Shown: one piece after another, positions 24-64,000 of the stretch
How positions within the stretch are numbered: the first letter of the stretch is position 1
Layout of the letters: every line of letters begins with the position of its first letter
Assembly: GCF_002105155.1 (NCBI RefSeq)
Contig: NW_019028993.1
Location: 620,001-684,000, forward strand
Direction of reading: 5' to 3'
Length of the DNA: 64,000 nt
Source of the DNA: Lobosporangium transversale
Taxonomy: Eukaryota
Program-made: the position numbers and the translations under genes
The notes under the pieces: generated by a model
What the model saw: only the letters and a program-made list of their open reading frames with translations
The model's database searches: none
What the model was told of the DNA's origin: nothing

Positions 24-105
24 TTATGCCTCTGTATTCATGTAGGATCAGAAAAACAAAATAAATAAAACCGTTAGATTAGTTTTATTTTATTTTTATT
101 TATTT

Positions 106-145
<40 letters not shown>

Positions 146-395
146 TGAAGCTTTTTAACTTACCAAGGATATGCTTCTCCACAAGGGCTTCAACTGTAGG
201 ACGCTGAGTGATCTTTGTGTTGAGCAAATCTTCCAGCTGTGAGCGCTTCAGCTCCTCCTCTTTCCTCTGCAATGCGGGGGCCACATGAGAATCTATCCGG
301 TTTTTTCAAAATAAAAAATAAATGTTATTACGCGACTTGTGATGGAGGAGCACAGACAACAAAAAAAACTAAAAAAAAAAAAAAAAAAATAAAAA

Positions 396-427
<32 letters not shown>

Positions 428-940
428 AGCTCTGTCCTTTCTAAAAAGTGTCTTTTTTTTTTTTTTTTTTTTTTTTTTTCACACGCACACTCTTCTTGTA
501 GTTGTGGTCTAGTTCATCGCTCATTCCAGTTGATAATGTTACTTTCAATGAATTGACAAAGCATTTTATAGATGTCTTCCTCTACAGCTCCTTCTTTCCT
601 TTAAAGATAAAGTTAAATAATAAAGAAAAAAATAAAAATAGTTTCACGCTTGGATTGGAGAAAAGATAATAAATATCTTTACCTTTGAGGATGTTCTTTT
701 CAACGAGCTCCTCCCGGTCAGGACGATGCTTCAAAAAGGTCTCGAGCTCCTCGGAAGCGCGTGTCTTGTCAGTGTTATCGGCTGTTTCAAGGACATAAAA
801 ATATTATCCAAAAAAGACAGGTTGTTTTTTTCAATCCCATCCAATGTGAAGTAGTCTATAAATGACGCGTAATATAAAACAAAAAGAGAGAGGAATATGA
901 GTCTAATTGCATATATCGCGTTTGCAAAGGTTCAGGGTAG

Positions 941-973
<33 letters not shown>

Positions 974-1252
974 AAATGTAACAACAAAAATCACGTACAG
1001 ATTGAAGGCATCCCGAAAGAAAAGAGCGAGAGAGCGAGAGAAAGAGAAAGAGAAATAGGGATCGGCAATGAGATAGTTTCCCGAATACGAGTCAACAATG
1101 AGATTCAACGAAGAAGAGTAAAATGGACAAGAGGACAGTTGGATATGTCGAGCAGTACAGCGAATCAAGAAGAAAAAGGTTTCGCAAAGTTAGTAAAGTG
1201 ACTTTGGATTTCTGCACAAAATTATTTCTGTTTGGATGTTGCACATACCCAT
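24..1252 (-). CDS. Small RPEL-repeat (G-actin-binding motif) protein, ~79 aa, 4 exons
   Basis: Manual splicing (ATGG|gtatgt at 1252-1249; exons ~781-682, ~292-163, ~31-24) gives MADNTDKTRASEELETFLKHRPDREELVEKNILKDSHVAPALQRKEEELKRSQLEDLLNTKITQRPTVEALVEKHILEA*, with two RPxxxxLxxKxIL RPEL motifs. Introns are GT-AG with a CTAAC branch point near 75. Not present in the ORF track. Confidence 0.85.
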
Positions 1253-2133
1253 GGTCTAGTTGATGTTGTCTGTAGAGTTGTGAATGAGCAAAAGAGATGA
1301 TGGAGTTGAAGAATGAGAGAGAAAGAAAGAAAGAGAAGAAAAAAAAGAGACTAAGGGGATAAAATACCCTCTGTCTTCTTCACTTACCCCTTTCAAAAAA
1401 AGGAGCCTAAAAAGGCTGAACATGTGCTGCAGACGAAGAGTTTATGTTTGTTCATGATGAATATATGAATATAAAACATGTATAACACGTAGAATGGGGT
1501 TAGGACTATGCATGTACATGTACAACAGTGCACAAATGCAAGACTGGGCATCTGACCAACGAAGGAGATTGGACAACTGCCTTTTCTGCATTTTTATTTC
1601 AGAGCAATCAATCAATCAATCAATCAATTGCAAAAAAGATGCGATGCTCAATATAAAAGTATATAAAGTACACTAACTAGGGTTTTTCCCCCTGCCTCCT
1701 TTTTTTGCCGATGTTTACGTTGATTAAAAATATTTTTATACTTCTTTCTTTAATCTTTCCTACCTTTTCAACTCCCTCATGCTCTTTTTTTTTTTTTTTA
1801 AGAAAAAAATTGGTCAGGTCACCTTTATGCTTAAGTAAAAATCATTTTCTTTCTGACGTTCAATCTTGACCCTAACGCCAACAATAGCTGTGGTCATGTA
1901 GTGTCCCTGTCCATGTGCCATCATCACGTTTTTTGACTATGACCGACCTTCTTTACTTGATCCTGATAAAATAGTCAGCAGAGGAAGGAGTGGACGAGTG
2001 CAAGAAGATCAGTCGCTCTTCTTCATCTGATTATCACACATTCTCTCTTGAATCATGTCTATCATCTTATAAAGACAATACGTCTAGAAAGGACTATTAA
2101 CAAGAACAGACAAACGTGATTAAGCAAATTGGG

Positions 2134-2166
<33 letters not shown>

Positions 2167-2345
2167 ATGTACATTAAATCAAAATGTGAAGCAAATGAAC
2201 AAACACAACTCTATGAAGGCAGATGATATAGTAGATACTACAATGAAGACTAGGTATGGAAGAAAATAAAATAAAGACATTTGTACGTTTGCATTTCTCT
2301 GCTTTTCTCTTTTTCTTTTCTTTTTTTTTTTTTTTTTTTTTTTTT

Positions 2346-3065
2346 CTACTTCTTCTTGGACGTCTTCTTTGCAATAGTCTCGTCGCCTACAAAGATACCC
2401 TTTTGGTTATAGGGCTCTGGTGGTCTCCATTTCCTGATTTTGAATGCAAACTCCTTGACTTTTTGAATATCATTTCCTTGCAACACAATCTTGTTCGGTA
2501 AAGGAGTCGAACATTGAATCCCCTCTGGGATATCCACCTCCACAGAATGCGAGTATCCCAACTTCATGGATAACTTTTCCTTGCTTCCTCCGGCTGCTTC
2601 TTTATTGTCTTCCACTGTTGCACGATAACCAACGCCTACCAAACGAATCGGGACTGTATAACCTTCTGAAACTCCTGTGATAGCGTTCGCAATCAATGCT
2701 CGTGTCGTCCCCCACATGGCCCTTTGTTCTTTGATTTCCGGATCCTGTACAGTGATACTCAATAGGGAATCTCCTTGTTCCTGTTCAAACTTCAAGTTTA
2801 CATAGGGTTTAATGGGTAGGACATGTTCTCCCAATGGTCCCTTGATATGAAGTGTGGTCGAATGAAGATCTGCAGGAACACGAGGGTTGAGAATCGGAGT
2901 AGGGTCATGAGTCAAGACCACATCCGTGCCAAAAGGTAAAACCTGTTTGCCAATATGAGAGAGAATTGCAGGTGAAGTCGAGAACGAACGGCGGATCAGA
3001 CCATTTGCAGTTGTTGTCGTTGTAATGAGGCTCTGACCCAGTCGTCTTGGGATCATGCTCGACAT
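2346..3065 (-). CDS. MRPL6: Mitochondrial ribosomal protein uL6m
   Basis: Intronless ORF with L6 motifs SHIGK, KGPLG, MWGTTRALIAN, LVGVGYRA, LGYSH and RPPEPYNQKGIF. The Arg/Ser/Thr-rich N-terminus (RRSFSTS) resembles a mitochondrial presequence. First ATG is at 3065. Confidence 0.95.
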   Translation of the reverse strand: MSSMIPRRLGQSLITTTTTANGLIRRSFSTSPAILSHIGKQVLPFGTDVVLTHDPTPILNPRVPADLHSTTLHIKGPLGEHVLPIKPYVNLKFEQEQGDSLLSITVQDPEIKEQRAMWGTTRALIANAITGVSEGYTVPIRLVGVGYRATVEDNKEAAGGSKEKLSMKLGYSHSVEVDIPEGIQCSTPLPNKIVLQGNDIQKVKEFAFKIRKWRPPEPYNQKGIFVGDETIAKKTSKKK

Positions 3066-3109
3066 TATTGGACTCGTCTGTTGATGATAAAGTTTTTGAG
3101 CAAACAAAA

Positions 3110-3140
<31 letters not shown>

Positions 3141-3483
3141 AGAAAAAGGGTCTACGGTCGTTCGTTTATTGTCACCAAAAGGAACGTGGTGAATGTCCGA
3201 AAAAACTGATCTTTTTTTTGTTGTTGTTGTGCCCTTGTCCTTGTGGGAGACTCTTCCTCTGGTTGCTTATAAGGTCGGAAGACTGCTATTATTGCACGTG
3301 ATATATAGTAAACAAAAAAAACCCCCGCCTCTCCTCCAACACTCCTCTCTCAAACATTCCGATTAGTTTGATTAGTGCATTCATTCTCCTTCTTTCTCTT
3401 TCTCTTCAAAATATTAAGGACATTAGAGGCAACCAAATCAACACCTTTGAACAAATAAACGTTTAAATATATATATATCCATC
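3066..3483. promoter_or_regulatory. Putative bidirectional promoter between MRPL6 and MRP2
   Basis: ~420-bp gap between two divergent start codons, with TATA-like and pyrimidine-rich tracts. Positional inference only. Confidence 0.5.
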
Positions 3484-3786
3484 ATGCCTCGCGCTCGCAT
3501 TATCCGTGATATGAAAGCTAGAGCCACTGTGGCTTCAACAGAGGTCGTTCGTCAAGCTCTTCGTTACCTGACCCGCAACACCACTCTCCCTGCCAAGGTC
3601 CGCGCACAAGCACAGCTGCAACTCAACGCCTTCCCTCGTGATGCTCGTCCTACTGCTATTCATAACCGTTGTCTCGAAACTGGACGTGGTCGTGGTGTCC
3701 TCCGTGCTTTCCGTCTATGCAGATTCCAATTTCGTCTCAAGGCTTTGGAGGGTGAACTTCCTGGTGTGAAAAAGTCGACTTGGTAA
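3484..3786 (+). CDS. MRP2: Mitochondrial ribosomal protein uS14m
   Basis: Intronless 100-aa ORF with the S14 signature NRCLETGRGRGVLRAFRLCRFQFR...GELPGVKKSTW. Confidence 0.95.
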   Translation: MPRARIIRDMKARATVASTEVVRQALRYLTRNTTLPAKVRAQAQLQLNAFPRDARPTAIHNRCLETGRGRGVLRAFRLCRFQFRLKALEGELPGVKKSTW

Positions 3787-4354
3787 AAAAAAAAAAAAAA
3801 AAAAAAAAAAAGGGAAAAGGACGCAGGAAAGATATCAATCGACTTTTTTGATGGACAAGGAAAGAGAGAAGGGAAACCATGTTGGAAGTATACGGAGTAA
3901 GAACAAGGAGGAGAAGCTATTCAAATGTATCGAATATACTCTTTTTTATGGATAACCGGAAATCAGAAACTGTCAAGAATCAGCGCGTCGTGTTTTTATT
4001 TTTTTATTTTTATTTTCCCTCCGCATCCATAATTCAATTTACAACAGGAAGCACCTTATCAAACAGCAGAGACAATACTGCTAGGACAACATCAACCCAC
4101 CATTATCAACTTCAGATAGATTAGATCTGAGGGTATGAGTTCTCTTGGTATCACATTTGTACAAATATAACACCCATCAGTTCTTTTTATTTTGCCATTA
4201 CATTTGGGAGATTTACAAAAGAAATGATTATGGTTCAGATACAAGCGCAAATTTTGTTAAAGAGTTATAGTTGGAAAGACACTATGTACAAATGCTTTTA
4301 AAAAGCTACAGCAATAAAAGAAAAAATGGTGGTAGGCAGTGAGAGGGTTTTCCT

Positions 4355-5656
4355 CTAATCCAAATCCATACCCATGATTTTATCCTCCAGTTCTTGGACA
4401 TGGGAATCGTCGTTTGCAGAATCATGGGAGGCATAGCCATCGTCTTCCTTATCGTCATCAATCTCTGTAATGCGTGCCGTGAACTCTGGCGTATCATCAT
4501 CCTCATAATCAAAAGATGAGCTCAAGAATGTTGGTGGAGGTCGACGGTACAAGACCAGCTCGTTACCTTGAACATCACTCAGTTCAGGAGTAGTATTATA
4601 TCGATTCAACCATTGCTTACGAATCAGTGCATCAACCCCATCAGCAAGTGTCACGGTTTTGGGGCCCTCGTATCTAATCAAAGCGCCAAGGTCAGCTTGA
4701 GAGGGTTTGGGTGTTTGAGGTGTTGCATTGTCCCAGTTATCTTGGTCCATCATCATGGATGATTCCGATTGGTCATCCCGATAGGTGTTTGAATTAGAAT
4801 ACTGAGAAAACTGTCCATGGTTATCATCATCACTCGTACGATCTTTCTTGGTGGTGTTGGACTGGAGTTCATTCCGAGGTTCTGAGATGATCTCAAGTGG
4901 GCTGTCATCACCATCCCCACTGTCTCTGCTGCTGCTATTATCCATGGATCGATGGATCCGGCTTCGTTTATATGGCGAAGGTAATGAAGGTGCATGATCC
5001 ATTACTGGTTTTAGCGTCCCATCTTCTAAAACATCAAAGATTTCGCGTAGTGAATCTGCGGACGAAAGAGAGTCTGCAGTACTCTCGCGGCGACGTTTGT
5101 GTTCTTTTTCGCCCAAATGAGATGATGACAACTCTTCTCCTGAAGAAAGGTCAACGATACGCACATCGTTACCTTGAGATCTTCTGGTATATTTTGGCAA
5201 AAGTGGGGGCCTACGAGGAGTAGAGGACAAAGGGTTTGACTCTTTTAATGTAGTTGGGGTCGAGGACAACCGGTCAGAGCTTGTTGTGATATTGTTTGGG
5301 ATATTGTTATTAGTAAGGATAGTGGGATCTGTAGCAGTAGCAGAACGGCGAAGTTTCTTGATAGGATGAGGCCTCGGTAAGGTGGAAGACGGCTCATTCA
5401 ATGAAGCATCGAGAGCGGCATAAAACTCTGGCTCAAAATGGAAAGATCGTTTTCTTCGTCCGGTATCCATGTTGTTGTGCTCAATGTGTGGTGGTGATTG
5501 TTGGCCTGGTTCCTGCTCATATGGCTGGTGAAAAGACTGAGGATAAACTGACTGCTTTTCTCTTTGAAGCAAGTCTTTTTGTGTAATCATGTGGTTATTG
5601 AAGGGGCTATACTTGTGTGATTGAAAGGGGTCTTGGATAGGTCTTTGTGCAAACAT
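4355..5656 (-). CDS. Hypothetical low-complexity protein with basic NLS-like patches and an acidic C-terminus
   Basis: Long uninterrupted ORF; first ATG gives MFAQRPIQDP. No family recognised. Confidence 0.7.
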   Translation of the reverse strand: MFAQRPIQDPFQSHKYSPFNNHMITQKDLLQREKQSVYPQSFHQPYEQEPGQQSPPHIEHNNMDTGRRKRSFHFEPEFYAALDASLNEPSSTLPRPHPIKKLRRSATATDPTILTNNNIPNNITTSSDRLSSTPTTLKESNPLSSTPRRPPLLPKYTRRSQGNDVRIVDLSSGEELSSSHLGEKEHKRRRESTADSLSSADSLREIFDVLEDGTLKPVMDHAPSLPSPYKRSRIHRSMDNSSSRDSGDGDDSPLEIISEPRNELQSNTTKKDRTSDDDNHGQFSQYSNSNTYRDDQSESSMMMDQDNWDNATPQTPKPSQADLGALIRYEGPKTVTLADGVDALIRKQWLNRYNTTPELSDVQGNELVLYRRPPPTFLSSSFDYEDDDTPEFTARITEIDDDKEDDGYASHDSANDDSHVQELEDKIMGMDLD

Positions 5657-20074: not shown

Positions 20075-20414
20075 AAATATACCTCACGTCGGTTTTTGCA
20101 AAAGTAAAAAATCGGTAAGTTACTTACGGGTTTCTTACCTCTGTATACCTCTGCGATACCGATTTCTTACCTCTGCGATACCGCTTTCTTACCTCTGCAA
20201 AAAGTTTACTCCAAAAATGGATAACAGCTTCTTCTTATTTGCATGTATATGCTGGGTCCCTATATATGCATAACTTGCGCTTGGTTCTTATATACATATA
20301 TATATATACTTACTGATTTTTACTCGAAATATACCGATGTTTAAGTAAATAATAAGTAAAAATTTACTGAAAAACTTCAAGTACGAATGTTCAGTACATC
20401 AGTACAGGTCACTG
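20075..20414. mobile_element. hAT-family MITE/terminal fragment (same family as 27389-28704)
   Basis: ~20088-20295 is near-identical to 27465-27665 (TTTCTTACCTCTGCGATACCG subterminal repeats). Ends in GTACATCAGTACAGGTCACTG, similar to the hAT right terminus GTACATCAGTACGAAACACTG. Confidence 0.75.
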
Positions 20415-20443
20415 CATTCATCTTGTTGGTTTTGTTCAACTAG

Positions 20444-22175
20444 AATTGAACCCCCGCGTATTGCATATTATCCTGATAAGATCCTAGATGTCATTACAAA
20501 GATACCGGACCCCAGCAACAACAACGCCCTCACCTATTGGTCAACATTGAAAAAGTCGGAAAACCAGGCCACCTCTGAGGATCCCCTTTTGTCTCTCTCG
20601 AGCCTGGCTCAATCTTTCCACAACGAACAAAGCGAGACGATCAAGTCTAACCTTGAACAGATTAAGGAATTGTTGATAAAGGCTGAAGACAAAGGCGACC
20701 AGATGCTTAAGCTGCAACTGGAGGCTAAGGAAAAGGATGAACTGATTATTAGTTTGCAACATCAAGCCCTCGACAGACTTGCTATCCTTCAAAAGCATGC
20801 TGAAGCTATCCTTGTCCAGAACTTTGAGCTACACGAGTATCCAATCCCTCGATTGTTTATAATTTTCCCCGTCGACCACACCAAATGGAATCCAATGAAT
20901 GTCTTGGGGAACAAGTTTCGTCTCCATTTCCTCTGTGAATGCGGGAACTATACCATCTTGGCAAGCAAGAGCAATCAGAACCAAATCCATATCGCCAAAC
21001 ATGACGGGCATGAAATCCGAGACAGCACTGAGTTCTTTCGCAAATATGGAAAGCACATGCTTATCCTTTTACAATGGCTCAGATTGGGAATGCTCTCCGC
21101 TGCTTCCCTGGTACCAGCCTCGCCTTTTATCGATGCTGGTATCAATTATTCAATTGACTATATAAAAGCCCTCTCTGTTGAGTATCCTGTCCTGAACAAC
21201 ATCAATACGATTGATGACTATGAGGGACTTGAAGGAGCTGACCTCCAGCAGTTGAGCACCTTCCTTCGAAGTAACGACGAAGACAGGAAACTTGGCAACT
21301 TGTACAGGATCACAACCGAGGCAGGTCATGTCAATTGGGTTTGCTCGGAACACTATCGTTTGACATATAAAGAAAAAGAGCAGAAAGCGTTTGCAAATGC
21401 TGTGGAGATGAATGGTGGGAAATATGATCAGCAACTTGGTAAAGCGGTCATCACATTGGGATCCAGAACGAGAGCTGAGGAATTCTTCGATGCCCTAGCC
21501 AATGCAAGGCGTATTTATGACTTGGATATCACATTCGCCTGAGATTGCTCCAAGGCTGATCTCGAAGCATTTAAAGATGTCTTGAAGATGTCAAGTGTAT
21601 CAACTCTTCGACTTGATATGGAACAGTTCCAAGAAAGCGTTGGCAGGAAATTGCTTTTATTATCTACGCGATATGAAATTCTTGTTCGCATCATTGAGCT
21701 TCGCAATTTGAAAACGATTCACATCGTTCTATCCAAGGATTTCGTAAGACTTGACTATTTACAACCTAGGAGATCAGACCTTTACAGGTTATCTTTTGAG
21801 ATGAAATCTCACTCAATTGGGTCTAGTAGGTTTCGAGTACTTGTAAATTCACTCAAGACCAACACGACTTTGACCGCTTTGGATTTGAAGTCTAATCCGA
21901 TTGAAAAGGAAGGGATTATGGCGGTAGCGGAGGCATTTAAGATCAACACGGGTTTGACCACTTTGAAATTGCAACTCTTCGGTATTGAGGATATAGGAGC
22001 TCCAGCACTGTCAGAGGCACTAAAGATTAACAGGACTTTGACCCATCTGGACTTGGGTTTCATCAGCTTAGATAAAAAGAAAAAGGTCATGTCACTGTTA
22101 GAGGCAGTCAAGGTTAACAGGACTTTGGCTATTGATGTAGATGATCAATTAGGAAAGCTTAGCTTTGGTTTATAA
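20444..22175 (+). pseudogene. Mortierellaceae-type coiled-coil + RNI-like LRR protein with an in-frame TGA and no visible first exon
   Basis: Exon starts after an AG at 20443 (IEPPRIAYYPDKILDVI), includes AILVQNFELHEYPIPRLFI, and ends with LRRs (LKTNTTLTALDL, LKINRTLTHLDL). A single TGA at 21540-21542 separates two ORFs in the same frame. Confidence 0.75.
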
Positions 22176-45150: not shown

Positions 45151-47350
45151 CATAACTGGAGAAGAGCGGTCATCAATCGTTGTAAGCGGTATGCGGGAAA
45201 TGAAAACACGCTCTCCTTGATATTGCCCATTGATAATCTGAATGTGTTACACCGCTCCGATTCGAATCTGCCGATCCTGATAGTGTCGTCATCAAGTCCA
45301 CTGGCATCACCAATATAGTCTATTAGTTTGACGACCTCTCTTGGGACATTATTGGTTACTCTCTCCACCTCCTTTATTACGGCATCCCTCGATGGCAAGG
45401 CACTCAAAGATAGAATCCTGCCGAAGATATTGTCCGATAAAGGCCCAACAAACTCCACCCAATTCTCGATGTCATACGAGATGTAGACTCTTTCACATGA
45501 GGCATGCGCCGTCCCTGCGAAGACAACTCGAGCGCCATTCTTATCCTGGGCCACAAAGTTAGGTGAATTAATGGGTTCAAAAGGTCAGGCTTTGACCTAT
45601 TGTCCTTGCGGAAAAGTTCGCCGTGTTCATCAATGATTACGAGAGTTTTCTTGCTCTTTTGACAAAGTATCCTGGACAAAATTATCTCGACGGCAAAAAC
45701 TATGGGATCGTCCTTAGAGTTTTCGTCCGGCACCAAGTTTTCAAGGTCTAAAGTAGTCAACAGGCCCTTATTAAGGGCAAAGAATCAGAGGCATATTTCG
45801 TTAGCTGCTACAGCCACAGCCGACTTGGCTAGTGCAGCGGCATTCGCGACATAAAGTGTTGGCCAGCCTTCTGCATACGCTTTTGCTGCAAGGAATATTG
45901 CAAGGTAGGATTTGCCGACATCCATCGGTCCAGCCAATACCCTCCTGATTGAACCATCGCTATCCGCGGAGAATTTGTTCCACAGCTCCATCATCTGTTC
46001 AGTGATAATGAACGATTTGCCCTGGAAGCCTTCCTCATAGTGTTTTAGTTATCCGCGAGGTCGTTTCTGAGCTAAAAAGAGGGAGTAATAAGGTTATTGG
46101 TTTGAAAATTGGCGTTTAAAAAATAGCAGTGGGAGTCTGAGAATGTGCACGGACCGTGGGGGCGACTTTTCAAATTCTTTTATAGAGATGAGATCCAAAG
46201 TCGCCCCCAGTCAAATGTTTTAGCCGTGATACATCTCAAAATAAAGAATCGTGTTTACTAGATTTCTATGACAAGCCTTTTTATAGGATTAAGAGCTATA
46301 TTATTACTGTATACTGTGACAAGAATTCTAAGTTGGGATGTTTCTAAACACTTTCTCTTTGAGCTCGTCGAAGCTGACATGAAGAAGATCTTTGTGCTTG
46401 TCGACTAATCCAGTGTGGTTTGGTGCACCAGAGGAACCACACATGTAAACTATTATAAATCCAGTTATTGTCTCTTCATCCTTTTTGACAACAGAATGTC
46501 CATCGTCAATTACGGCGGAATGATTACCTCCAAGTACTTCGTCCAAATAACTTTCGATTTTATTTATGTTGTCGGAACCTCTCTTAGCAAAAGCGTTCTG
46601 GAACTTCTTAGTTTGTTTCCTGTCGTGTTCTTGGAAATCACTTACGAACACCTGGATAAACATTGTGTCGAGTGTGAAATCAAAGCGAGGATAAGTCGGA
46701 TAGCAATGACTCAGTACATGTCCATAGCCATGTCTGAAAGAAGTCTTGCCTTGTTGGATTGTCCCATGATCCTTAAAGTCCATTTTAATCTCCATTAGAT
46801 CCTTGCCGCAAAGGTTTGTTGCTCTGAGAACGATTGGCTTAGTTAAAGTCAAAAACCGGACCAACAGTGTCAACTTGAAATCATCACCTACCTCTCCAAG
46901 ATTTACTTGCCTCAGGATATGCTCATGATGAGGTATGTTTGTAAACGCCTGAAAGAGTGCTTTCTAAGCTGGGAGGCACAAGACATAGTTCATGGCTCCG
47001 CCGTCCTTGTTGAGACGATAGATAAGCCCTAGGTCACGGAAATCCCATTCAAAATCACTACTCTGCGAGTTGTTGCCAAGGAAGACTGTTGCAAGCCTTT
47101 TAGCGAACTTCTTCGATGTCTCACTGCGAGTTTCGTAGTACGTCCAAACTATAGCGTGAAACGTGCTTGTTCTCTTAGCTACAAACGTATCAATGTCATT
47201 TCTTGTGAGCGCCCTTTCCTCAATTGACCGAATGAAGAGCATAAACTCTCGCGGCACACGGTGTGTAAGCCTCGTTACATCCTGGACAATATCAGGTTGA
47301 TTTAGGTATGATACTTAAAGTTGCCGCTCATTTGGATAAACTTAAGTTAG
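45150..47350 (-). pseudogene. Crinkler-like P-loop NTPase + PD-(D/E)xK nuclease gene relics, two segments
   Basis: 46040-45150 has a Walker A-like VLAGPMDVGKSYL and Walker B LVIIDEHG. 47350-46328 has VPREFM and YPTYPRFDFTLDTMFIQVFVSDF (REase-like). Multiple stops and frameshifts. Confidence 0.65.
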
Positions 47351-50522: not shown

Positions 50523-51109
50523 CCTTTCACTTATTTCTTTCATTACCAATTGTCTCGCGAGCACTAGCACGTCCACCACCGGATGAGGCCTTCAATCCAT
50601 ATTTGAGCAAATAGGTCCAATCAGCGTGAGAAGGACGAGGGTACAGATCCGTCTCAGTGTAATCATGAGGACGCTGATCCTGATTCGGGACTGTCAATCC
50701 AATCGGTGTTCCCAATGTGTGTCCAAATTCTGTACCAGACAAAATCGTTACCCTATCCTTCTCATCACGCTATTTGGGAAAGACACACACATACACAAAA
50801 AAAAAAAAGTTAATAATCATGATAACAATAATGAGGAAAAGATAATCATAGAACGCATTGATATAAGATACAGGATATAAGGTATAGTGTATAAGATATA
50901 AGGCATAAGATATAATGTAATATGAGGATTGATCTTCTTACAGGAGTGGTGAGATTGCTTTGTCCAGGGCGTCGGCGAGTTAGTTGAGGCTGGATATCAT
51001 CCTCAGTCAAGGCAAGTCCAGGTGGACATCCATCGATGATACAACCAACGCCTTTACAGTGTGACTCTCCAAAGGTTGTAACACGGAAGTGGGTTCCAAA
51101 AGTTGACAT
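49221..51109 (-). CDS. ARO2: Chorismate synthase
   Basis: [63 protein letters not shown] and [11 protein letters not shown]. Four GT-AG introns. Confidence 0.97.
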
Positions 51110-51449
51110 TGTTAATTTTTTCCTTTGAAAAGAAAGAATGAAAAGAGATTTCAACAATGAATGAATGAGTCAAAAGAAAAAAGATAAAGAGGGCACTTGT
51201 TCAGAAGAATTAAGTGTAAACAGTCACATTCACATTCCATTTCATCGAGTCATATGCGCCACAGCCCCCTCCAACAATTGACTGGCCTTCAATTACACTT
51301 TCTCAAAAAAGAATTTGCTGCGCAAAAAAAGGGAGACGAGCGCCTGTTGCAATCTGTTCCAATATCTATGGGTTCATATTATTTTACTTTTATATGCTCT
51401 TGTTTTTCTACATCTTTCTTTCTTTCTTTCTTGTTTTGTTTTGATTATT

Positions 51450-53701
51450 CTATACCGAAAAGTTGCCAAGGAGCTCCGGTACCTGAACTTCGCCCTTGTT
51501 GATCTTCTCCAAAGTCTTGATCAGATCAAAATTAATCTTTTCGGACACAACCGAATCCTTCTTATAATCAGGATGGTTCTGTACAAATTGACGGATCCAT
51601 GAGGCTGCTGTCATCAATGTTCCATTCGCACGCTTCTTGATCAATTCAAGATATTTGCTAATCTCACATCGTGTCTCAATATCAATGTTCAATGTGTTCA
51701 AATAATTGTTGACTAATCCCAGCAGTCCAGGGAATCCCTTTGCTGGATTGCCATTGATGATCTCATCAATCGTCATCAGTTCATACTCATTATCCACTCC
51801 TGCGGAAGGTTGTTGTTGGTGATGGTGATGGTGGCTACTGTTGCTGTTGTCTGTATGGGCTGGATCCTGTTCGTTGATAGTTGTCATATGAGGTACTGTC
51901 GCATGGGTTACACGGGGTGATCCAGAAGGGGTTCCTGAAGCTGGTGTGCTAGGTCGCGACTGAGGGAAAATTTGTTTACGGAAATGGAACTTTTCTTGAA
52001 GAACGGCGTTTCTATGATGGGCGACCTTCATGTTCTCATCAACCTAACAACAAGTTAAATTAAAATTAGAATATTGTTTAAAAATGTATCTAACCATAAC
52101 CATACCTTATTGTCCCATTAAACAAAACAAAAAACAAAAAAACAAAAAAAAAAAAAAAAAAAAAAAAAATTACCTTGGAAATAGGAATATAAAAGTTGGT
52201 GTTGAAGCTTAGTACAGCACGGGTGACCAAGACAATGAAGATCGCAAAGGCTGCATTCTCAAAATCTGTCAACTGAATCTCCATTGAGCGGAACTCGACA
52301 CGCCAACCAATAGGACTGGTCTTTGAAGGTGGGGGTTTGAAACGCATGGTTTGCCAATTGGTACTCTGTAAATTCTCGAAATGGTCTGTGCTCTCGTTAT
52401 CGTCCACATTCAACAACTCATGGAAAATCACCAAGGGATCACGGATGAAGAGATGTGAGATATGGCGAGCCAAGAGATCATCAATGCCATTGTCGGAAAG
52501 CTTTTTGTAAATGTCCTCGTCGTAGACCAAGGGTATGTCGTTGTACTCAGGCTTGTAGCTGGGGTCATTAGAGATGTACGAGTCTATCGAATCATAACGT
52601 GATTTGGGGATCCTGTACTTGTTTTCTTTGAGAGGCTATTAATATCAAAAAAGTAACAAATAAATAAATAAATAGACAAATAAACAAAAACAAGTCGAGG
52701 TGATATGAATAAAAAAAGATGTGAGATGGTGCAGAAATGGTGCCATTTGACGTTCCACATGGACAAATAAAAAAGATTTTGGTAAAGGAGTACAGTAAAG
52801 AATGCAATAAAAGTCCATGTGTCACACACAGCATTGATCAAGTAAAGCCCTTTTTTTTTTTTTCCTCTCTTTCTTTTCCGAGATCAGGCGGAGTTTTTTT
52901 TTTTTTTTTTTTTTTTTACCTTGAGTCCACGCTCTTCTTCGGTTCTGTCATCTACGGATTGAGCAATCACATTCCATCTACAATCAACATCACTCAAATA
53001 TCCACGATAAATGGGAGCAGCAGCTGTCAAGGCCAACATGATGGGGCCCAATGGCGCCATTTGATCATAGATCTTGCGTGCCTCATCGACATTGACCGCC
53101 TGAAATGTGATCTGTAGACAACAACATCCCATGCCAAAAGCCATAGCGTCCATGTAAATATGATCTGGTTTGGCAGCTCCTTCTTCAATCGCATTCTTAT
53201 CCTCGGGATAGTCATTAAAAGTTGGGATAGTAGGATCGATAAAAGGTTTTGGAGTATTGACATCGTGGAAAATAGGCATATTGATTGCAACTTTGGATCC
53301 ACGGCGACGGCGAATATTGGCGGTTAAAGTTCTGGGAACATTAAGAAAAAAAATAAAATAAAAACATAAAAAGTTTAAACATTGCGCAGCATCCAATGAG
53401 TTTACTAATTATTAAAGAGAAGCAACTCACAGCGTGTATCCATTTTTTTTTTATAAAAAAAAAAAAAAAAACTTACGGGAATCGAGCGTGAGCATTAATG
53501 ATATCATCTGGGACAAAGAGACTGCGAGCAGCTGGACCATGTGGCTCATGATGGGGCTCAAGGAATTCTCCAGCACATCCAAGACGGGGATAAGATGTCA
53601 GTGTTACAGGGACCTCATTTGGCTTCATGAGCGAACGGGCCAGTTCACGTCTAAAATAAAGCAAATAGTTGTGGCAAGCAACAAGGTAATAAAGATTATG
53701 A

Positions 53702-53736
<35 letters not shown>

Positions 53737-54374
53737 AAAGCCATGATTCTAATCCTGACGGAGACTAAAAAGTTTTTTTTATCGATGCTTAAATACCGAA
53801 GTTTCATATTCCGTTCGACAGCCAACAGATCGCGAGGAAGTCCCATGTAGGGTTCGCCAGGAGTACCCTCCAACATGTAGCGACCGTATTCAGGATGCCA
53901 TGATGAGTCGACTAGCAATCTGAATGCAAGCATATAGTATAAAGCATAAAATTAAAGTAGAAAGGTAAACCCAAAAAGACGTGTGTCAGCAGGGTCATTG
54001 ATGATCATTGATGATCATTGAAGTACATGTAGTATACATGGATATGGATATGGATATGGATATAAAGGAGAGAGAAACGAGATGGCATTGTTGAATTACC
54101 TTTTGGCAGGATCGGTCATGGCTTCTTCCTCCTGTATGGCCAAATGCTGTAGGATCTCCCAGACACGCAAGCTGAGCTTGGCTCGCTGATTCTCCTCATC
54201 GAGACTGACAACGATATACTCGATCTCATCACCCCAGAGAAGACAATCCTTTTGTGAATCCTTGGTAGCCTCCCAGAGGTTCAGGAACTGGATGATACCA
54301 TGGGTTCGGACGTGGTCAGCATACTTCTTGGCCTCGTCCCAAGGCATGGGTGTTCCGAGTGATAAGAGACCCAT
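51450..54374 (-). CDS. GSH1: Glutamate-cysteine ligase catalytic subunit
   Basis: [74 protein letters not shown] and GWRVEFR. Multiple GT-AG introns. Confidence 0.97.
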
Positions 54375-55569
54375 TGTATGATGACTGTGACTATTTTAAA
54401 AAGAATATGAATATGGAAGAGAGAAAGAAAAAGAAAATAAAATAAAAGACAAGAGCCGTAAAAAGGTATAGATACAAGTGAAGGATTGAAAAGGTCGAAT
54501 GAATGAGTGAATGCGGAGGGGAATGAACGATCGAATGAAAGAATGAAAGATAAAAAGAATGAAAAAATGAAAGAAGAGGAAGAGAGTAAAAGACAAAATA
54601 ACTTTGAAATGAGTTTTATTTTTTCTGCCAATAGGAAAAGGGGTGCTGAAGGATGCATTAGTAATTGACCAGAAAATTTTTTCGATCAATTGACCTATTA
54701 GAGTTTTTTGGCACTGTAACAACGTCGAGCCAACGCAAGCTGCACGCGTACAGCAATACAACAATACAACAATACAACAAACAACAATCTTGTTCTCTTG
54801 AAGATGGGCCCTGGGAAACTTGTACATGTACATGTACATGTAAATAAGTAAGAAAAAAAAAAAAAAAAAAAAAGTCTAAATAAATGTTTTATAAACAGTA
54901 ATAGATCCCCTTTGTTAGATGACAACAGTAATCAAGAACAAGATAATGATTTGATTTCAGCCCCTTCTGGGAAACGCAACCGGACAACTTTTTTTTTTTT
55001 TTTTTTTTTTTGATTATAAAGCAAAACCAAAGCCGAGCTGCGCAAAGCAAGGGAAGGTTGCAATTGACGCTAGAGATAGCGTGTGATGGCGTTGACATGT
55101 ATGATGATCAGTCCAATAATATTTTTTTTTTTTTAAGTCTCCTTTGAGAGCCATGGCCTATCAGAGAGTCGGTCTATTATGATCGACGCATGTTCTCATG
55201 TTCTGCATAAAATAATCTATAATGGATTATGATGCCAAATCCAGTCCTTTTTCCATTTAAGGGTATTATGTTTCATGTCTGTGCGTACAAGACATGTGTC
55301 CGTTTTGTGGCTTTTACTCCGACACTTGTCCTGAAATTTGAATTGACATCAAATCCATCGAAATTTTAACAATGTCATCATGGCATGCTAAAGATCTCTT
55401 TCTTTCTTCTTTATTTCACGCCTTCATTCCTCCATACATTCATATACACAATAAAACAATAAAACCTACAATACACAGAGTAGACTTACCCTCTCCCCTG
55501 ACTAAAACTGAGAAAAATAACGGCACATTCGCATTTTCAAAGGTTCATTCCTGCTTGCTCACTTTCAAA

Positions 55570-58500
55570 ATGACAAACAACAACGAAAAGATTTTATCCA
55601 ATTTCACCTGCATGGATTTGGAACAAAGCACCAGTCAGACGAAGCCAACCAATTCAAGTACTCGCACTGGATCCACTCGTGCAACACCGAGGAGAAAAAG
55701 AGTTATTCTGACTGACGAAACGACTCCAGAGCCTTCACCAGTGGCACAGACTGCTAGAGTTAGTGCAAAGTCTTTTAAGCGCCCTAGGCGTTGTGAGGCT
55801 GATTCTTTATCCTCAAATGTCCTTCACTCCGGTCCATTGACAGAAGAAGAGCTGGCCCTGGCGAACGCACGGAAGGAGTCGGCGAGAAGTGTGCTGCAGA
55901 TGATTTTAGATGATCCAGATTCATCGACGACAGTGAATCAATATAAGACACAGCTCCGGCTGTGGGAGGTATGTTGGATCATCAAAATGTCGCTATGAGC
56001 TATCTCAGACAGGCTATCAAACTAGACGACTTGGCTAATTCTCTTTTTTGTTTTTAGCAATACTGCAATGAAAATTATCAAGGTGACTGTAGCGTCGATG
56101 CGAAACGCATGCTTGAATACTTCACAACGGTTGTCTTCAAGCGAACAGTAAAGCGATTGATCGGCACAGATCGTTGCTACCGTGGCGCTATTGGGTATGC
56201 CCAGCAGGGTGGAGGAGATTCTTCGAATTCTCAGGCTGGGGAAGACGCAGTCTATGAGGGAGAAGAGATCGACGAATTAGTCGAGGCAGATATCGACGAA
56301 CATGAACTAAGCGACATGGAGCAGAGACTGGAGACATTAGATAACAGCGAGCAAGTTGATGACGACGACGGCCAAAGCATAGACCAAGGTCAACAACAGG
56401 GACAGGGTCAGAGACAGGGTCAGGAACAGGGTCAGGAACAGGGTCAGGATCAGGATCAGGAACGGAGACAGGGTCAGGGGCAGGGGCAGGGACAGGAACA
56501 AGGACAGGAACAGGAACAGGAACAGGAACAAGGACAGGAACAGGAACAGGATGAAGATCTGGAGCTTCAGCTGAGGTCATTGGCACAGAGAGGTAAGAAG
56601 GCTCCTCCCTCCTGGGATAATATGGAGCCACCTGAAGGAGTCGACCCACATCAATGGCAGATTGATATAGCATTGAATGATGAGGAGCGAGCATCACATG
56701 AAGCTGTAACTGTTGGGGGTTCAAGCAAGAACATCACGCCGAAGCGGAAGACTGCAGCCGTTATCAGGACTGAAAATGAAAGAGAACAAGGTATGTAAAG
56801 ATAACCATGTATTAATATATAAATTGTTATACAGTACTGGGATCCAAACCTTTGGGAAGGCTCCGCCATCACGCGTACCCCAGGTGACAAGACACCATGG
56901 CCGCAACTCAGTGTTAATTATCAATATAAATAGCCTACTAAATTATGACTTAATAAACCATTCCTTAATCCTGCATCCACCTTAATGTATCTTTGATTGT
57001 TACAATTTACACTAATGGTTGATACTTTTTATTATATATACAATTTTTTTTTTTTTTTTTTTTTTTGGATATACTTTTGCGTTTGTAGTTATCCTGCAAG
57101 CACCAGAGGACAAACATGGCAGCAAAATTGTCTTTGTTCCTCTCACGCTGGGGACAGTCGCAAATGTTAAGAAGGCTTTGCAATACTTATGGAGGCAACA
57201 GTCTTCTTCGACAGCTCCGTATCCCAATCCCGCCCCAAACCCAAGAACGGATGTACCACTAGCGGAGGCGATCAAAAATTATGGAGAGAAACTTGTCCAT
57301 CACAAAGTAACGACAGGCACCTTATCTCGCACTGCCACCTGTGCCGTACGAGAACCTTACAACACTAAAATGTACCTGCGTATGTTGGCCTTTACATGGC
57401 GCATGCTTCCGACGGTTGGAGTAAGCGGCAGGCGACCTTACGACAGTGTTACAAGATTTCAGTATATGAGGGAGAGGCTATGCCTCCTTGCACGCCATCA
57501 TATGTTGCTGCGGGATGAGGACATCCGAAACTTGAACCTGGCTAACACATTCAATATTCAGACCCGTCACCCCGCGCCAGGGTCAAAGCTGGCGTCGGGG
57601 CTTGTCTTCTGCATCACACGTGGAAAGACAAACCATAAAGGTGTCGAACTCTATGCGACAGCTTATCGACATAAGCTGTTCTTAAGGTGCACCGTGGGCG
57701 GGTTTGCATTTTATATGCTAGAACGGTTCCAGGTAAATGATGCCGTCAGTCTTGACGCGAGCGTATGATTTTTTCTCATTCAATTACACGAAGTGACATA
57801 TATCCTTATTTTTTTTTTTTTCCCTATTGTAGGTGTTCAAGGAGCCTCTTCCCAATTTTGCGGACCCTGACGAGTGGTACAGCATCAAGGTGCTAACAGG
57901 GGGTGGAACAAGCCAAGAACGGTTAGAGAACCGAAAGGAAGCGCTTGTTGGCCGAACCCAAATGAGCACTACGGCGGCTGTAATGCGTGCCTGCGACGTG
58001 CATTCGGCCAAAATTACGCACTCTGGCCGACATGCAGGGGTCTCGGAAGCCTACGAAAGAGGCTTAAGCCTGGACGATATTCGCCACTTGGGAAGGTGGG
58101 TCATGGGGCAAATGGAGAACTTCTATGCTCCAAAAAACCCAACCAGGGGCGCTTTTTGTATGGCTCAGTTTGGACCGAATGAGCCTTACTTTATCGAGCG
58201 TGATTTGGTCACCCCGCCCTTAGAGCTCCAGCGTCTGGTCTTTCCTTGGATTGAGGAAAATTTTGATAAACATATGCCGGAGAGAGCTGACTCCTGGAGA
58301 GAGGAGTGCACCAAAGAAATGCTGGGGGTCGATCCAAATGTCCCGACAGACGAAGACATTTTTTGGACGCCAATCGAGAAGAAGACGAGCTCGAAACGAT
58401 TGACCCGTGCCTTCAGCACTGACTCCCTTGTTACACGCATTGGGTTCCTCAAACTTCTTGTGCGTATGAGGCGAGTAATCCTTCAGGATGCAGTGCTCTT

Positions 58501-59485
58501 TTTGAAGCCGAACGACAAGGGGAAAATGTTGGAGAACAAACTCCTCGAATCGTTACCAGAAATCTTTGGTTGCCAGCTCTTTCTGGATTTCCAACATCAA
58601 TTGCTTCGGGCCATCGACGTACATCGCCGACAAGCAGGCATCATCCAAGCGGATGTGCCAGTTAATGCGCAAACTATGGTAAGCGCCATTAACACGTTGT
58701 CGGTAGAGGCGCGGGTCTTTCATCAACTCCAGCATGAGACGGTCCAGAAGCTCGAGGCCCTATCCACCCTTGTGACAGAGCAACAGGAGCAACAGAGGCA
58801 GCAACAGGAGCAACAGAGGCAGCAACAGGAGCAAATCCACTTACTTCTCCAATCGCTGCAGCAGCAACAAAGCGCAAATGTGCGGCAGCCTTTTCCATAT
58901 CATGTGCAGTCTTGCCCGCCCTTTGTGTTTAATCCTTCTCCATTGGCGCCAGCACAGAGCCGCCTAGCTTCTTTTCCTTCGGTTCCTCAGGCTCCTACTA
59001 CGCAGGGCCTATATCAAGCTCGCCAGGCCGCTCCACCGCAACAGCAGCCATTATTTTCCAACCAATTGCCACCATGTCCTCAGCAACAGCATCCATATCA
59101 ACATAGCCATGTGCAGGCTCCAATGACCTCAGAGCAGACACAACGATTGCCGGAAGATGAAAGGTATAAAGGCTACCTCATGAAAGGCGATGGCAAGCAA
59201 TTGACGGTCAGGGAAGCATGGGATGAATTCCGTGGGCCCGTTGCTCAGGCAAAGCAGGAAAATCACAAATGGCCATTCACAGAGGCGCGTCACAAGGCAT
59301 TCAGGCGCAGGCGTCAATTTTTCGATCTGATAAAGAATATTGCCGAAAAACAGAAGCGAGACTTCGAAGAGGTAGTAGACGCACTGACAGCTCAGTACAA
59401 GGGTCGGACAATCAATTCCATTCGACTAGAGCTTCTGAAAGACACCGGGAATGACGAAGGCTGCCACCAAGATGCGGACGAGTAG
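55570..59485 (+). CDS. Crypton tyrosine recombinase (Ndc10 domain II-like YR + C-terminal GCR1_C-like DNA-binding domain), ~1142 aa, 4 exons
   Basis: Exons 55570-55968, 56058-56790, 57089-57732 and 57833-59485 splice in frame with GT-AG introns. Catalytic set: R (HMLLRDED), K (RGKTN), HxxR (THSGR), W (LGRW), Y (MENFY). Also FLKLLVRMRRVILQDAV and a C-terminal TVREAWDEF...W...FRRRR. Confidence 0.9.
56385..56550 (+). repeat. Coding microsatellite (CAGGAA/CAGGGT)n encoding a QGQE tract
   Basis: 6-bp units are visible directly; the same tract occurs in copy 2 (61229-61394). Confidence 0.9.
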
Positions 59486-59917
59486 ATGAGTAAGGGTAAT
59501 TTTTTTTTTCTTTTTTTATATATATATACATATATATATATCCTCGGATACAAATTTAAGCAATAAAGCACAAAGTAGTGATGGTGTCGGAAATACCAAG
59601 ACATGAACTGAGCTACAAGAAGCAGAAAACTGTTGGCTGCATCCTTGAGCCAAAAGAGGCTGAGAAAATACAATGTACAAGCAACCCATTGTCGTGAAAT
59701 TTGTGATATTCCAAGGTGTTTAGCATAAGTATCATCCAGGAAAAAGCATTATCGTCAACATTATTAACAAGACAAAACACCATCAAAGCACTATCAAAGC
59801 ATTTTTGACTCGACTCGGCTACCAACGCACTATAACAGAAATAATTGAATACTTCATCAATATAAAAACTGTCATGTTTAATCATTAACACTGTCTCTAC
59901 CATAAAAAGATTTTGTC

Positions 59918-59968
59918 TATTTCGCTTCACAAATCCATTTTGTGGAAAAAGATTTGTGAAGCGAAATA
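59918..59968. repeat. Perfect 18-bp inverted repeat near the Crypton right end
   Basis: TATTTCGCTTCACAAATC (59918-59935), a 15-bp spacer, then GATTTGTGAAGCGAAATA (59951-59968). Confidence 0.9.
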
Positions 59969-60045
59969 TAAAAATTTTGTGACTTGGTATCCTTCTGTGT
60001 CCACCTGTGTCCGCCTGTGTCCATCTGAATGGACACAGGTGAGCA

Positions 60046-60084
60046 ATTTCGTTTCACAATCTATAATGGATTATGATGCCAAAT
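60046..60084. other. Putative tyrosine-recombinase crossover site (attP/circle-junction-like) at the copy1/copy2 junction
   Basis: ATTTCGTTTCACAATC - TATAATG - GATTATGATGCCAAAT: 16-bp inverted arms (12/16 complementary) around a 7-bp spacer, located exactly at the repeat boundary. Confidence 0.7.
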
Positions 60085-63000: not shown

Positions 63001-64000
63001 TTGTATGGCTCAGTTTGGACCGAATGAGCCTTACTTTATCGAGCGTGATTTGGTCACCCCGCCCTTAGAGCTCCAGCGTCTGGTCTTTCCTTGGATTGAG
63101 GAAAATTTTGATAAACATATGCCGGAGAGAGCTGACTCCTGGAGAGAGGAGTGCACCAAAGAAATGCTGGGGGTCGATCCAAATGTCCCGACAGACGAAG
63201 ACATTTTTTGGACGCCAATCGAGAAGAAGACGAGCTCGAAACGATTGACCCGTGCCTTCAGCACTGACTCCCTTGTTACACGCATTGGGTTCCTCAAACT
63301 TCTTGTGCGTATGAGGCGAGTAATCCTTCAGGATGCAGTGCTCTTTTTGAAGCCGAACGACAAGGGGAAAATGTTGGAGAACAAACTCCTCGAATCGTTA
63401 CCAGAAATCTTTGGTTGCCAGCTCTTTCTGGATTTCCAACATCAATTGCTTCGGGCCATCGACGTACATCGCCGACAAGCAGGCATCATCCAAGCGGATG
63501 TGCCAGTTAATGCGCAAACTATGGTAAGCGCCATTAACACGTTGTCGGTAGAGGCGCGGGTCTTTCATCAACTCCAGCATGAGACGGTCCAGAAGCTCGA
63601 GGCCCTATCCACCCTTGTGACAGAGCAACAGGAGCAACAGAGGCAGCAACAGGAGCAACAGAGGCAGCAACAGGAGCAAATCCACTTACTTCTCCAATCG
63701 CTGCAGCAGCAACAAAGCGCAAATGTGCGGCAGCCTTTTCCATATCATGTGCAGTCTTGCCCGCCCTTTGTGTTTAATCCTTCTCCATTGGCGCCAGCAC
63801 AGAGCCGCCTAGCTTCTTTTCCTTCGGTTCCTCAGGCTCCTACTACGCAGGGCCTATATCAAGCTCGCCAGGCCGCTCCACCGCAACAGCAGCCATTATT
63901 TTCCAACCAATTGCCACCATGTCCTCAGCAACAGCATCCATATCAACATAGCCATGTGCAGGCTCCAATGACCTCAGAGCAGACACAACGATTGCCGGAA
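60058..64000 (+). mobile_element. Crypton copy 2, truncated by the window end
   Basis: Appears identical to copy 1 except for one extra T in the intron-2 poly(T) (offset changes from 4844 to 4845). Confidence 0.9.
60414..64000 (+). CDS. Crypton tyrosine recombinase, copy 2 (3' end outside the window)
   Basis: Same exons as copy 1 (ATG 60414; exon 4 from 62678). Catalytic motifs are intact. Confidence 0.85.

Follow-up and report, generated by a model that had tools for sequence, protein, structure and literature searches.

The sites of Cre/loxP, Flp/FRT and lambda-type att recombination require a match over the whole spacer, which is left at both ends. They are built from two inverted arms around an asymmetric spacer of 6-8 bp (PMC3212892), an architecture that recurs at the locus described here, where the spacer is nonetheless not duplicated and the target is without a second arm. 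The ends of Cryptons, by comparison, are described as direct repeats of 4-6 bp without inverted repeats, with the mechanism undemonstrated; CryptonF elements are characterised as lacking terminal inverted repeats in PMC3212892, a statement repeated in PMC13465315 (2026), and experimental demonstration of Crypton transposition is given as absent in PMC13565253 (2026). The active Chlamydomonas element CryptonF-1_cRei is reported to excise cleanly yet to gain copies, for which its describers propose a ‘complex mode’ (PMC9977147). These accounts (e.g. PMC3212892) agree with the remark in the original prediction that Crypton ends are usually described only as short direct repeats, and in the literature searched (which did not extend to Goodwin et al. 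2003, entries in Repbase, journals behind a subscription or the supplements of preprints) we found no account of Cryptons that mentions arms, a spacer or tandem junctions.

The element analysed here resembles CryptonF as published (Kojima and Jurka 2011, PMC3212892; CryptonF-1_cRei, PMC9977147) in having a single intron-containing gene that combines a recombinase with GCR1_C, a length of 4-5 kb and multiple copies, and in carrying at both ends a 6-7-bp direct repeat that matches the target. It departs from the described CryptonF elements in that its ends bear imperfect inverted arms of 16 bp, which are conserved, with a spacer fixed to one of the two ends and further copies of the arm in subterminal position; it also forms a tandem array, and its direct repeat is off-centre. 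The Starship Hephaestus (PMC10104507; 10.64898/2026.09.21.753150) is likewise a fungal tyrosine-recombinase element, with a short repeat straddling its TT//AC recombination point, inverted repeats near its ends and a joined-end circle able to integrate, but its recombinase is of the DUF3435 family, it bears large cargo, and its junction reads are rare (36 vs 6,959), whereas junctions here amount to about one third of ends. A further likeness is to CTXphi and VGJphi at dif (PMC3442271) and the strand-biased circularizing elements of Vibrio (PMC9345347), in which homology lies beside one cut only, one strand pair is exchanged and replication completes the process; for CTXphi and double-stranded VGJphi this is an XerC-only exchange followed by replication, attributed to the lack of overlap homology beside the second cut, and CTXphi also forms tandem insertions (PMC3442271). 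Those systems are bacterial, depend on host XerC/D or on several genes, and use a fixed two-arm target, whereas here one eukaryotic enzyme would serve many half-site targets; the likeness lies in the inferred mechanism only.

The element, its copies and its recombinase

The window, by which we mean the whole 64,000-bp stretch of Lobosporangium transversale DNA analysed, contains two CryptonF-type elements on the plus strand: copy 1 (55218-60061, 4,844 bp) and copy 2, which begins at 60062 and runs off the window at 64000. Identity between the copies begins at 55214 and 60058, respectively, and over 3,942 bases copy 2 shows no mismatch to copy 1 and differs from it only by a single additional T within a poly-T tract. 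Copy 1 bears a four-exon gene (55570-59485, plus strand; introns 55969-56057, 56791-57088 and 57733-57832) encoding 1,142 aa with no stop. In short-read run X7, introns 1 and 2 are spliced out at GT..AG while intron 3 was not seen spliced; no run containing the stretch is recorded as RNA, and we take X7 to be processed RNA solely on account of these two skipped introns.

The original prediction had identified the element as a Crypton, an identity upheld by the encoded protein. It matches NDC10_II above the Pfam cut-off (E 9.6e-11) and GCR1_C (PF12550) just below it (E 4.3e-4, 21 bits against a 23-bit cut-off), and it retains an intact tyrosine-recombinase motif set (R519, K557, H655, R658, W681, Y690). 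Of 960 candidates, 27 proved to be homologues, mostly Mortierellaceae where named, and in these the motif residues are conserved in 20 (H), 21 (R), 23 (W) and 22 (Y) sequences, with 4-5 gaps, while the first R and the K are covered by only 4 and 3 homologues; the nearest protein matches are unnamed Mortierellaceae proteins. The predicted structure of one homologue (P0005) is of low confidence (pLDDT 57) and gave no structural match, and a profile search of solved structures returned weak unrelated matches only. By its motifs and the published description we assign the element to CryptonF, with the layout given in PMC3212892. It shows the traits of a DNA transposon, namely introns, the absence of a reverse transcriptase and dispersed copies (at least three other flanks, and approximately 17-23 ends per genome by depth), and a short direct repeat is present at both ends (AATCTAT in run X1; AGTCTA in L006, a metagenomic relative). 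It has, contrary to the described lack of terminal inverted repeats, imperfect 16-bp inverted arms, and because membership of CryptonF turns on the protein we regard these as an overlooked feature of CryptonF rather than as a ground for exclusion.

A non-autonomous derivative exists elsewhere in the genome, recognised by a deletion joint in runs X1, X3, X4 and X7 that removes the equivalent of 58098-59610 (plus strand). It is without W681, Y690 and GCR1_C but has both ends intact, numbers roughly 5-7 copies by depth, and is also found in the spliced run X7. The array itself probably comprises about 7-9 copies on a rough, depth-based estimate, and a single array is suggested because the depth of the window's private allele approximates that of the junctions plus one copy. 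Free circles are, on the same private-allele depth, an unlikely main source of the junctions.

A gene in divergent orientation, which from its translation resembles glutamate-cysteine ligase, has the array approximately 1 kb upstream of it, and a chorismate-synthase-like gene lies beyond (region 50846-54400). Judging by eye, frames at 20349-22175 resemble a leucine-rich-repeat gene of NLR-like type that is interrupted by a stop, and those at 46328-46963 resemble a Crinkler-like fragment.

The joined-end site and the break points of other copies

The head-to-tail joint of the two 4,844-bp elements occupies 60046-60084 (plus strand). It consists of a left arm that is the terminal 16 bp of the element right end (60046-60061), the 7-bp spacer TATAATG, carried with the element left end (60062-60068), and a right arm that is the first arm of that left end (60069-60084). 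The inverted arms around an asymmetric TATAATG that had been proposed for this joint were confirmed when the pairing was recomputed: the arms pair at 12 of 16 positions (in order, four paired, one unpaired, one paired, two unpaired, three paired, one unpaired and four paired), the best result among spacers of 5-9 bp at the junction, with the symmetry centred on 60065 and a contiguous inner match of 4 bp, not 6. The left boundary of the array is likewise as described in the original prediction, in that the spacer and arm of copy 1 (55218-55240) are identical to 60062-60084, while the attL-like host flank (55202-55217) pairs with the arm at 8 of 16 positions, its inner 6 bp forming a contiguous mimic of the arm; AATC or ATC stands at this place in other insertions too. 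The 19-mer core of the site occurs in the window only at this left boundary and at the junction. Across the junction lies a direct-repeat core, AATCTAT (60058-60064), made up of the inner four arm bases and the first three spacer bases and found at both kinds of end in X1. At this locus, what is classically called the 6-bp ‘direct repeat’ of Cryptons is thus four arm bases plus two or three spacer bases.

Short reads bear on both the reality of the junction and the limits of other copies. The stretch is present in 7 of the 8 listed runs (four studies), and contigs were compared in four of these (X1, X3, X4 and X7), with X1 taken again at the junction alone and X2, X5, X6 and X8 outside the comparison. 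The contigs are simplified graphs in which depth is not copy number, making all depth figures rough, although those of X1 are internally consistent (1,550 for full-length plus 607 for deleted elements gives 2,157 ends). In X1, a 53-bp contig covers 60035-60087 without difference at a depth of 791, against 98-126 for single flanks. The junction is not an assembly artefact, because it is present in short-read contigs at about one third of element-end depth, equivalent to approximately 6-8 junctions among 17-23 ends.

The original prediction held that other copies should break inside the spacer, and this is what the contig breaks of X1, X3 and X4 and a flank in X7 reveal. In the first three runs the left-end contig begins at 60063 (equivalent to 55219), while the one for the right end reaches no further than 60064. 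The X1 contigs that feed the left end comprise the junction (791), others with a different base before AATC (1,250) and one with a changed first spacer base (126), giving a total of 2,167 against 2,157.5 for the left end; every X1 left end therefore appears to have AATC and the element spacer. The left flank in X7 ends in ATC. About 7-9 left ends share three further bases before AATC (55211-55217 in the window; X1 record 7), so that the preferred target may be as long as 10 bp, or may belong to a repeated host sequence. 

Right ends were expected to read as the arm plus part of TATAATG, then host DNA, and those recovered elsewhere bear this out: TAT precedes host sequence in X1 record 3, TATA in X7 record 30, and TA in the metagenomic loci L006 and L004, so that 4 of 4 right ends seen keep just 2-4 spacer bases. 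No second arm was found by eye in the host DNA beyond the right end of X1 record 3. Most right junctions of X1 lie outside this sample (1,331 of 2,242 depth units unseen). The X4 bin sums agree with right ends that stop at 60064, while the downstream bin of X3 is inconsistent, and in X3 and X4 the overlap is about half of that expected if right ends retained the spacer. X1, X3 and X4 have variants in common and may be one strain, perhaps the source of the window, and the insertions may not all be independent.

The site has the inverted arms around a 6-8-bp asymmetric spacer typical of loxP and FRT, but not their whole spacer at both ends. The loxP/dif picture of the original prediction, in which a whole spacer is shared between two host arms, is not supported at the right ends seen, where the spacer is curtailed and no host arm follows (5 of 16 positions pair on the host side in L006, and 2 of 16 in L004). 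What stands of it is the junction as a recombination site; the two-armed target gives way to what looks like a half-site, with the crossover at the left spacer edge, because right ends truncate the spacer and the host DNA beyond is without an arm. The target resembles the inner arm bases followed by TA(T), and we infer a crossover after 60061 or after 60062.

Inside the right end of copy 1 lie two arm-like copies in inverted orientation (59918-59968), which form an 18-bp inverted repeat and match the terminal arm at 13 of 16 positions. They are situated 80-130 bp inside the ends, similar copies can be recognised by eye in the relatives L004, L006 and L007, and they are likely to be accessory recombinase sites. 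Between them and the junction, four GGACAY/RTGTCC boxes are clustered at 59997-60036 (four within the final 130 bp, where 0.1 would be expected), and boxes of the same kind occur at the matching ends of L006 (2), L004 (3), L002 (7) and L007 (4); they are likely to be protein-binding boxes. Subterminal arm-like repeats and GGACAC boxes (59918-60036 in the window; 3' ends of L002, L004, L006 and L007) are conserved across families.

Related elements in metagenomes

A metagenome scan yielded 21 related loci, only one of which, L006, has both ends present. Its recombinase is 53% identical, and the whole element occupies positions 76-4737. In an unbiased scan of end pairs, the top site of L006 has 16-bp arms pairing at 11 of 16 positions around a 7-bp spacer, TATAACA, a comparable site arising in 2 of 60 shuffles. 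The rebuilt site is identical to the window junction at 28 of 39 positions (one of 310,351 end pairs), its right-end arm matching 60046-60061 at 13 of 16 positions, and the inner arms have changed together, from AATC/GATT to AGTC/GACT, in a compensatory manner. The 6-bp repeat AGTCTA, equivalent to the direct-repeat core of the window, is present at both ends, and in the rebuilt empty site the arms pair at 4 of 16 positions. The L006 left flank (1-75) is an open frame that, joined to the right flank (4738-4740) at the inferred cut, runs into an immediate TAA stop, as if the element had inserted at the stop codon of a gene.

A matrix built from the window and L006 scores the left end of L007 at 14.4, against a host maximum of 11.8 over 109,948 host positions, and finds the right end of L004 as the top match in its locus (10.4), in the right place and on the right strand, although this score falls within the host background. 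The arm-spacer-arm design, put forward from the window as a real site, is therefore supported by its recurrence in L006 and by one end each in L007 and L004; a TATA-NNN spacer is found in L006 and L007 too. L002 offers an end candidate by eye only, L003, L005 and L008 yielded no recognisable end, and the remainder of the 21 loci are truncated or distant. Ends of relatives were recovered by ungapped and motif scans only: the unbiased end-pair scan of L005, L007, L012, L015 and L019 gave no convincing site, and when the window ends were aligned with gaps against the 21 loci, no true end emerged (the best match, z 3.5, fell in a coding region). Viral contigs contained no match to a 23-nt junction pattern, none of their 14 candidate stretches proved to be a relative, and no relative was found among 64 prokaryote genomes.

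Other features of these loci may be recorded here. Upstream of the left end of L007 lies an open frame (1-303) that resembles the end of a Fanzor/TnpB-type nuclease and that has no Pfam match; the 16 bp adjoining the L007 site are complementary to the arm at 8 positions, and the flank may be another mobile element. The gene region of the closest relative contains a 180-bp palindromic element twice (L001, 90-269 and 1065-1246), which is probably a MITE, and L020 has several long internal repeats.

Proposed strand exchange at one edge of the spacer

We consider it highly probable that the 39 bp constitute a functional recombination site in some form. As to how the site is used, our preferred explanation, to which we assign about an even chance, is a single strand-pair exchange at the left spacer edge that is completed by host replication or repair. 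The recombinase would likely bind the arms in the manner of Cre, and four monomers would synapse the joined ends (in a circle or at an integrated end) with the target. The top strands would be cut after C or after CT, re-joining would be permitted by 1-3 matching bases, and the second exchange would be blocked by mismatch in the rest of the spacer, leaving a Holliday junction to be resolved in place by replication or a host nuclease. That only the first strand pair would be exchanged follows from the remaining spacer, which does not match. In the ends seen, homology is confined to bases beside one cut and the products bear each partner's own overlap (with most X1 right ends unseen). Carried out between both ends of one copy, the exchange would leave one daughter with a clean empty site and the other with an intact element, and would yield a circle; with a sister copy as partner, or an end that is already present, it would produce head-to-tail arrays such as the one seen here. 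A single exchange would thereby account for both the clean excision with copy gain reported for CryptonF-1_cRei (PMC9977147) and the tandem arrays. The position of the cut is touched on by X1 record 4 (depth 126), where AATC is kept and the first spacer base is not T, which fits a cut after CT (with an unusual 5-bp overlap), or a model with a 6-bp core, better than a cut after C. When published CryptonF repeats are oriented on a C^T step, 10 of 12 fit, but a random 6-mer passes in 42% of cases, the rule is post hoc and the entries are related, such that this fit is a lead only.

The classical model of Goodwin, under which the 6-bp direct repeat (ATCTAT; AGTCTA in L006) is the overlap, both strand pairs are exchanged and the arms are off-centre binding sites (accessory or of GCR1_C type), is less likely in our estimation than the single exchange. 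It explains the left/right asymmetry and the near-invariant AATC of host flanks without an extra step, reads the mismatch of X1 record 4 as heteroduplex, and agrees with published 6-bp repeats and CAYCG targeting. However, no symmetry emerged when a 6-bp spacer was centred on the direct repeat (7 of 16 at best), whereas that around the 7-bp spacer is conserved with compensatory change; the overlap of a tyrosine recombinase is normally centred between its arms (PMC3212892); and the limits of the repeat vary between families (-3/-4 to +3 as opposed to -4 to +2).

More doubtful still is that two exchanges span all 7 bp of the spacer, mismatches being tolerated, after which repair is strand-biased or the other product is lost. 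Such mismatch tolerance is the style of conjugative transposons with their coupling sequences, and it would preserve the textbook geometry (arms and a 7-bp overlap, as in mv4 integrase) while just 2-3 bp would have to match at the first cut. Yet it predicts that some host spacers be left at left ends and some element spacers at right ends, and none appear in the X1 left-end sum or in the 4 of 4 right ends; the approximately 10-13 non-junction left ends of X1 all have the element spacer, a result with odds of about 1 in 1,000 if the outcome were 50:50. That the palindrome is incidental, and the array a product of ordinary homologous duplication or of assembly, is very improbable and already largely refuted, for although palindromes of this grade are found elsewhere too (the first 60 kb of the window contain at least 7 that are not homopolymers and pair at 12 or more of 16 positions) and identical tandem copies can expand by homologous recombination once a dimer exists, making later array growth by this route possible, the junction contig reaches a depth of 791 without difference, shuffling both ends gave a palindrome with its spacer over the junction in only 166 of 200,000 trials, and the same site was rebuilt in L006.

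Returning to single-edge exchange, the locus offers an intact, transcribed recombinase and a defined joined-end site of 39 bp, which a distant relative confirms, together with natural left and right junctions, and its prediction of a one-sided crossover would separate the three mechanisms in simple plasmid assays. The statement that Cryptons lack inverted repeats is corrected, at least for this fungal lineage. More tentatively, and with somewhat less confidence than we attach to the exchange at this site, CryptonF elements at large could be eukaryotic single-exchange integrators, in which one self-encoded tyrosine recombinase cuts at the left edge only, a host half-site of 6-7 bp suffices and replication finishes the reaction. 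If this is true, they would provide a compact, directional integrase without need for a landing pad; the published Crypton repeats of 4-6 bp (and perhaps the TT//AC of Starships) would be the footprint of one cut rather than the overlap, and clean excision with copy gain, as well as head-to-tail arrays, would be explained.
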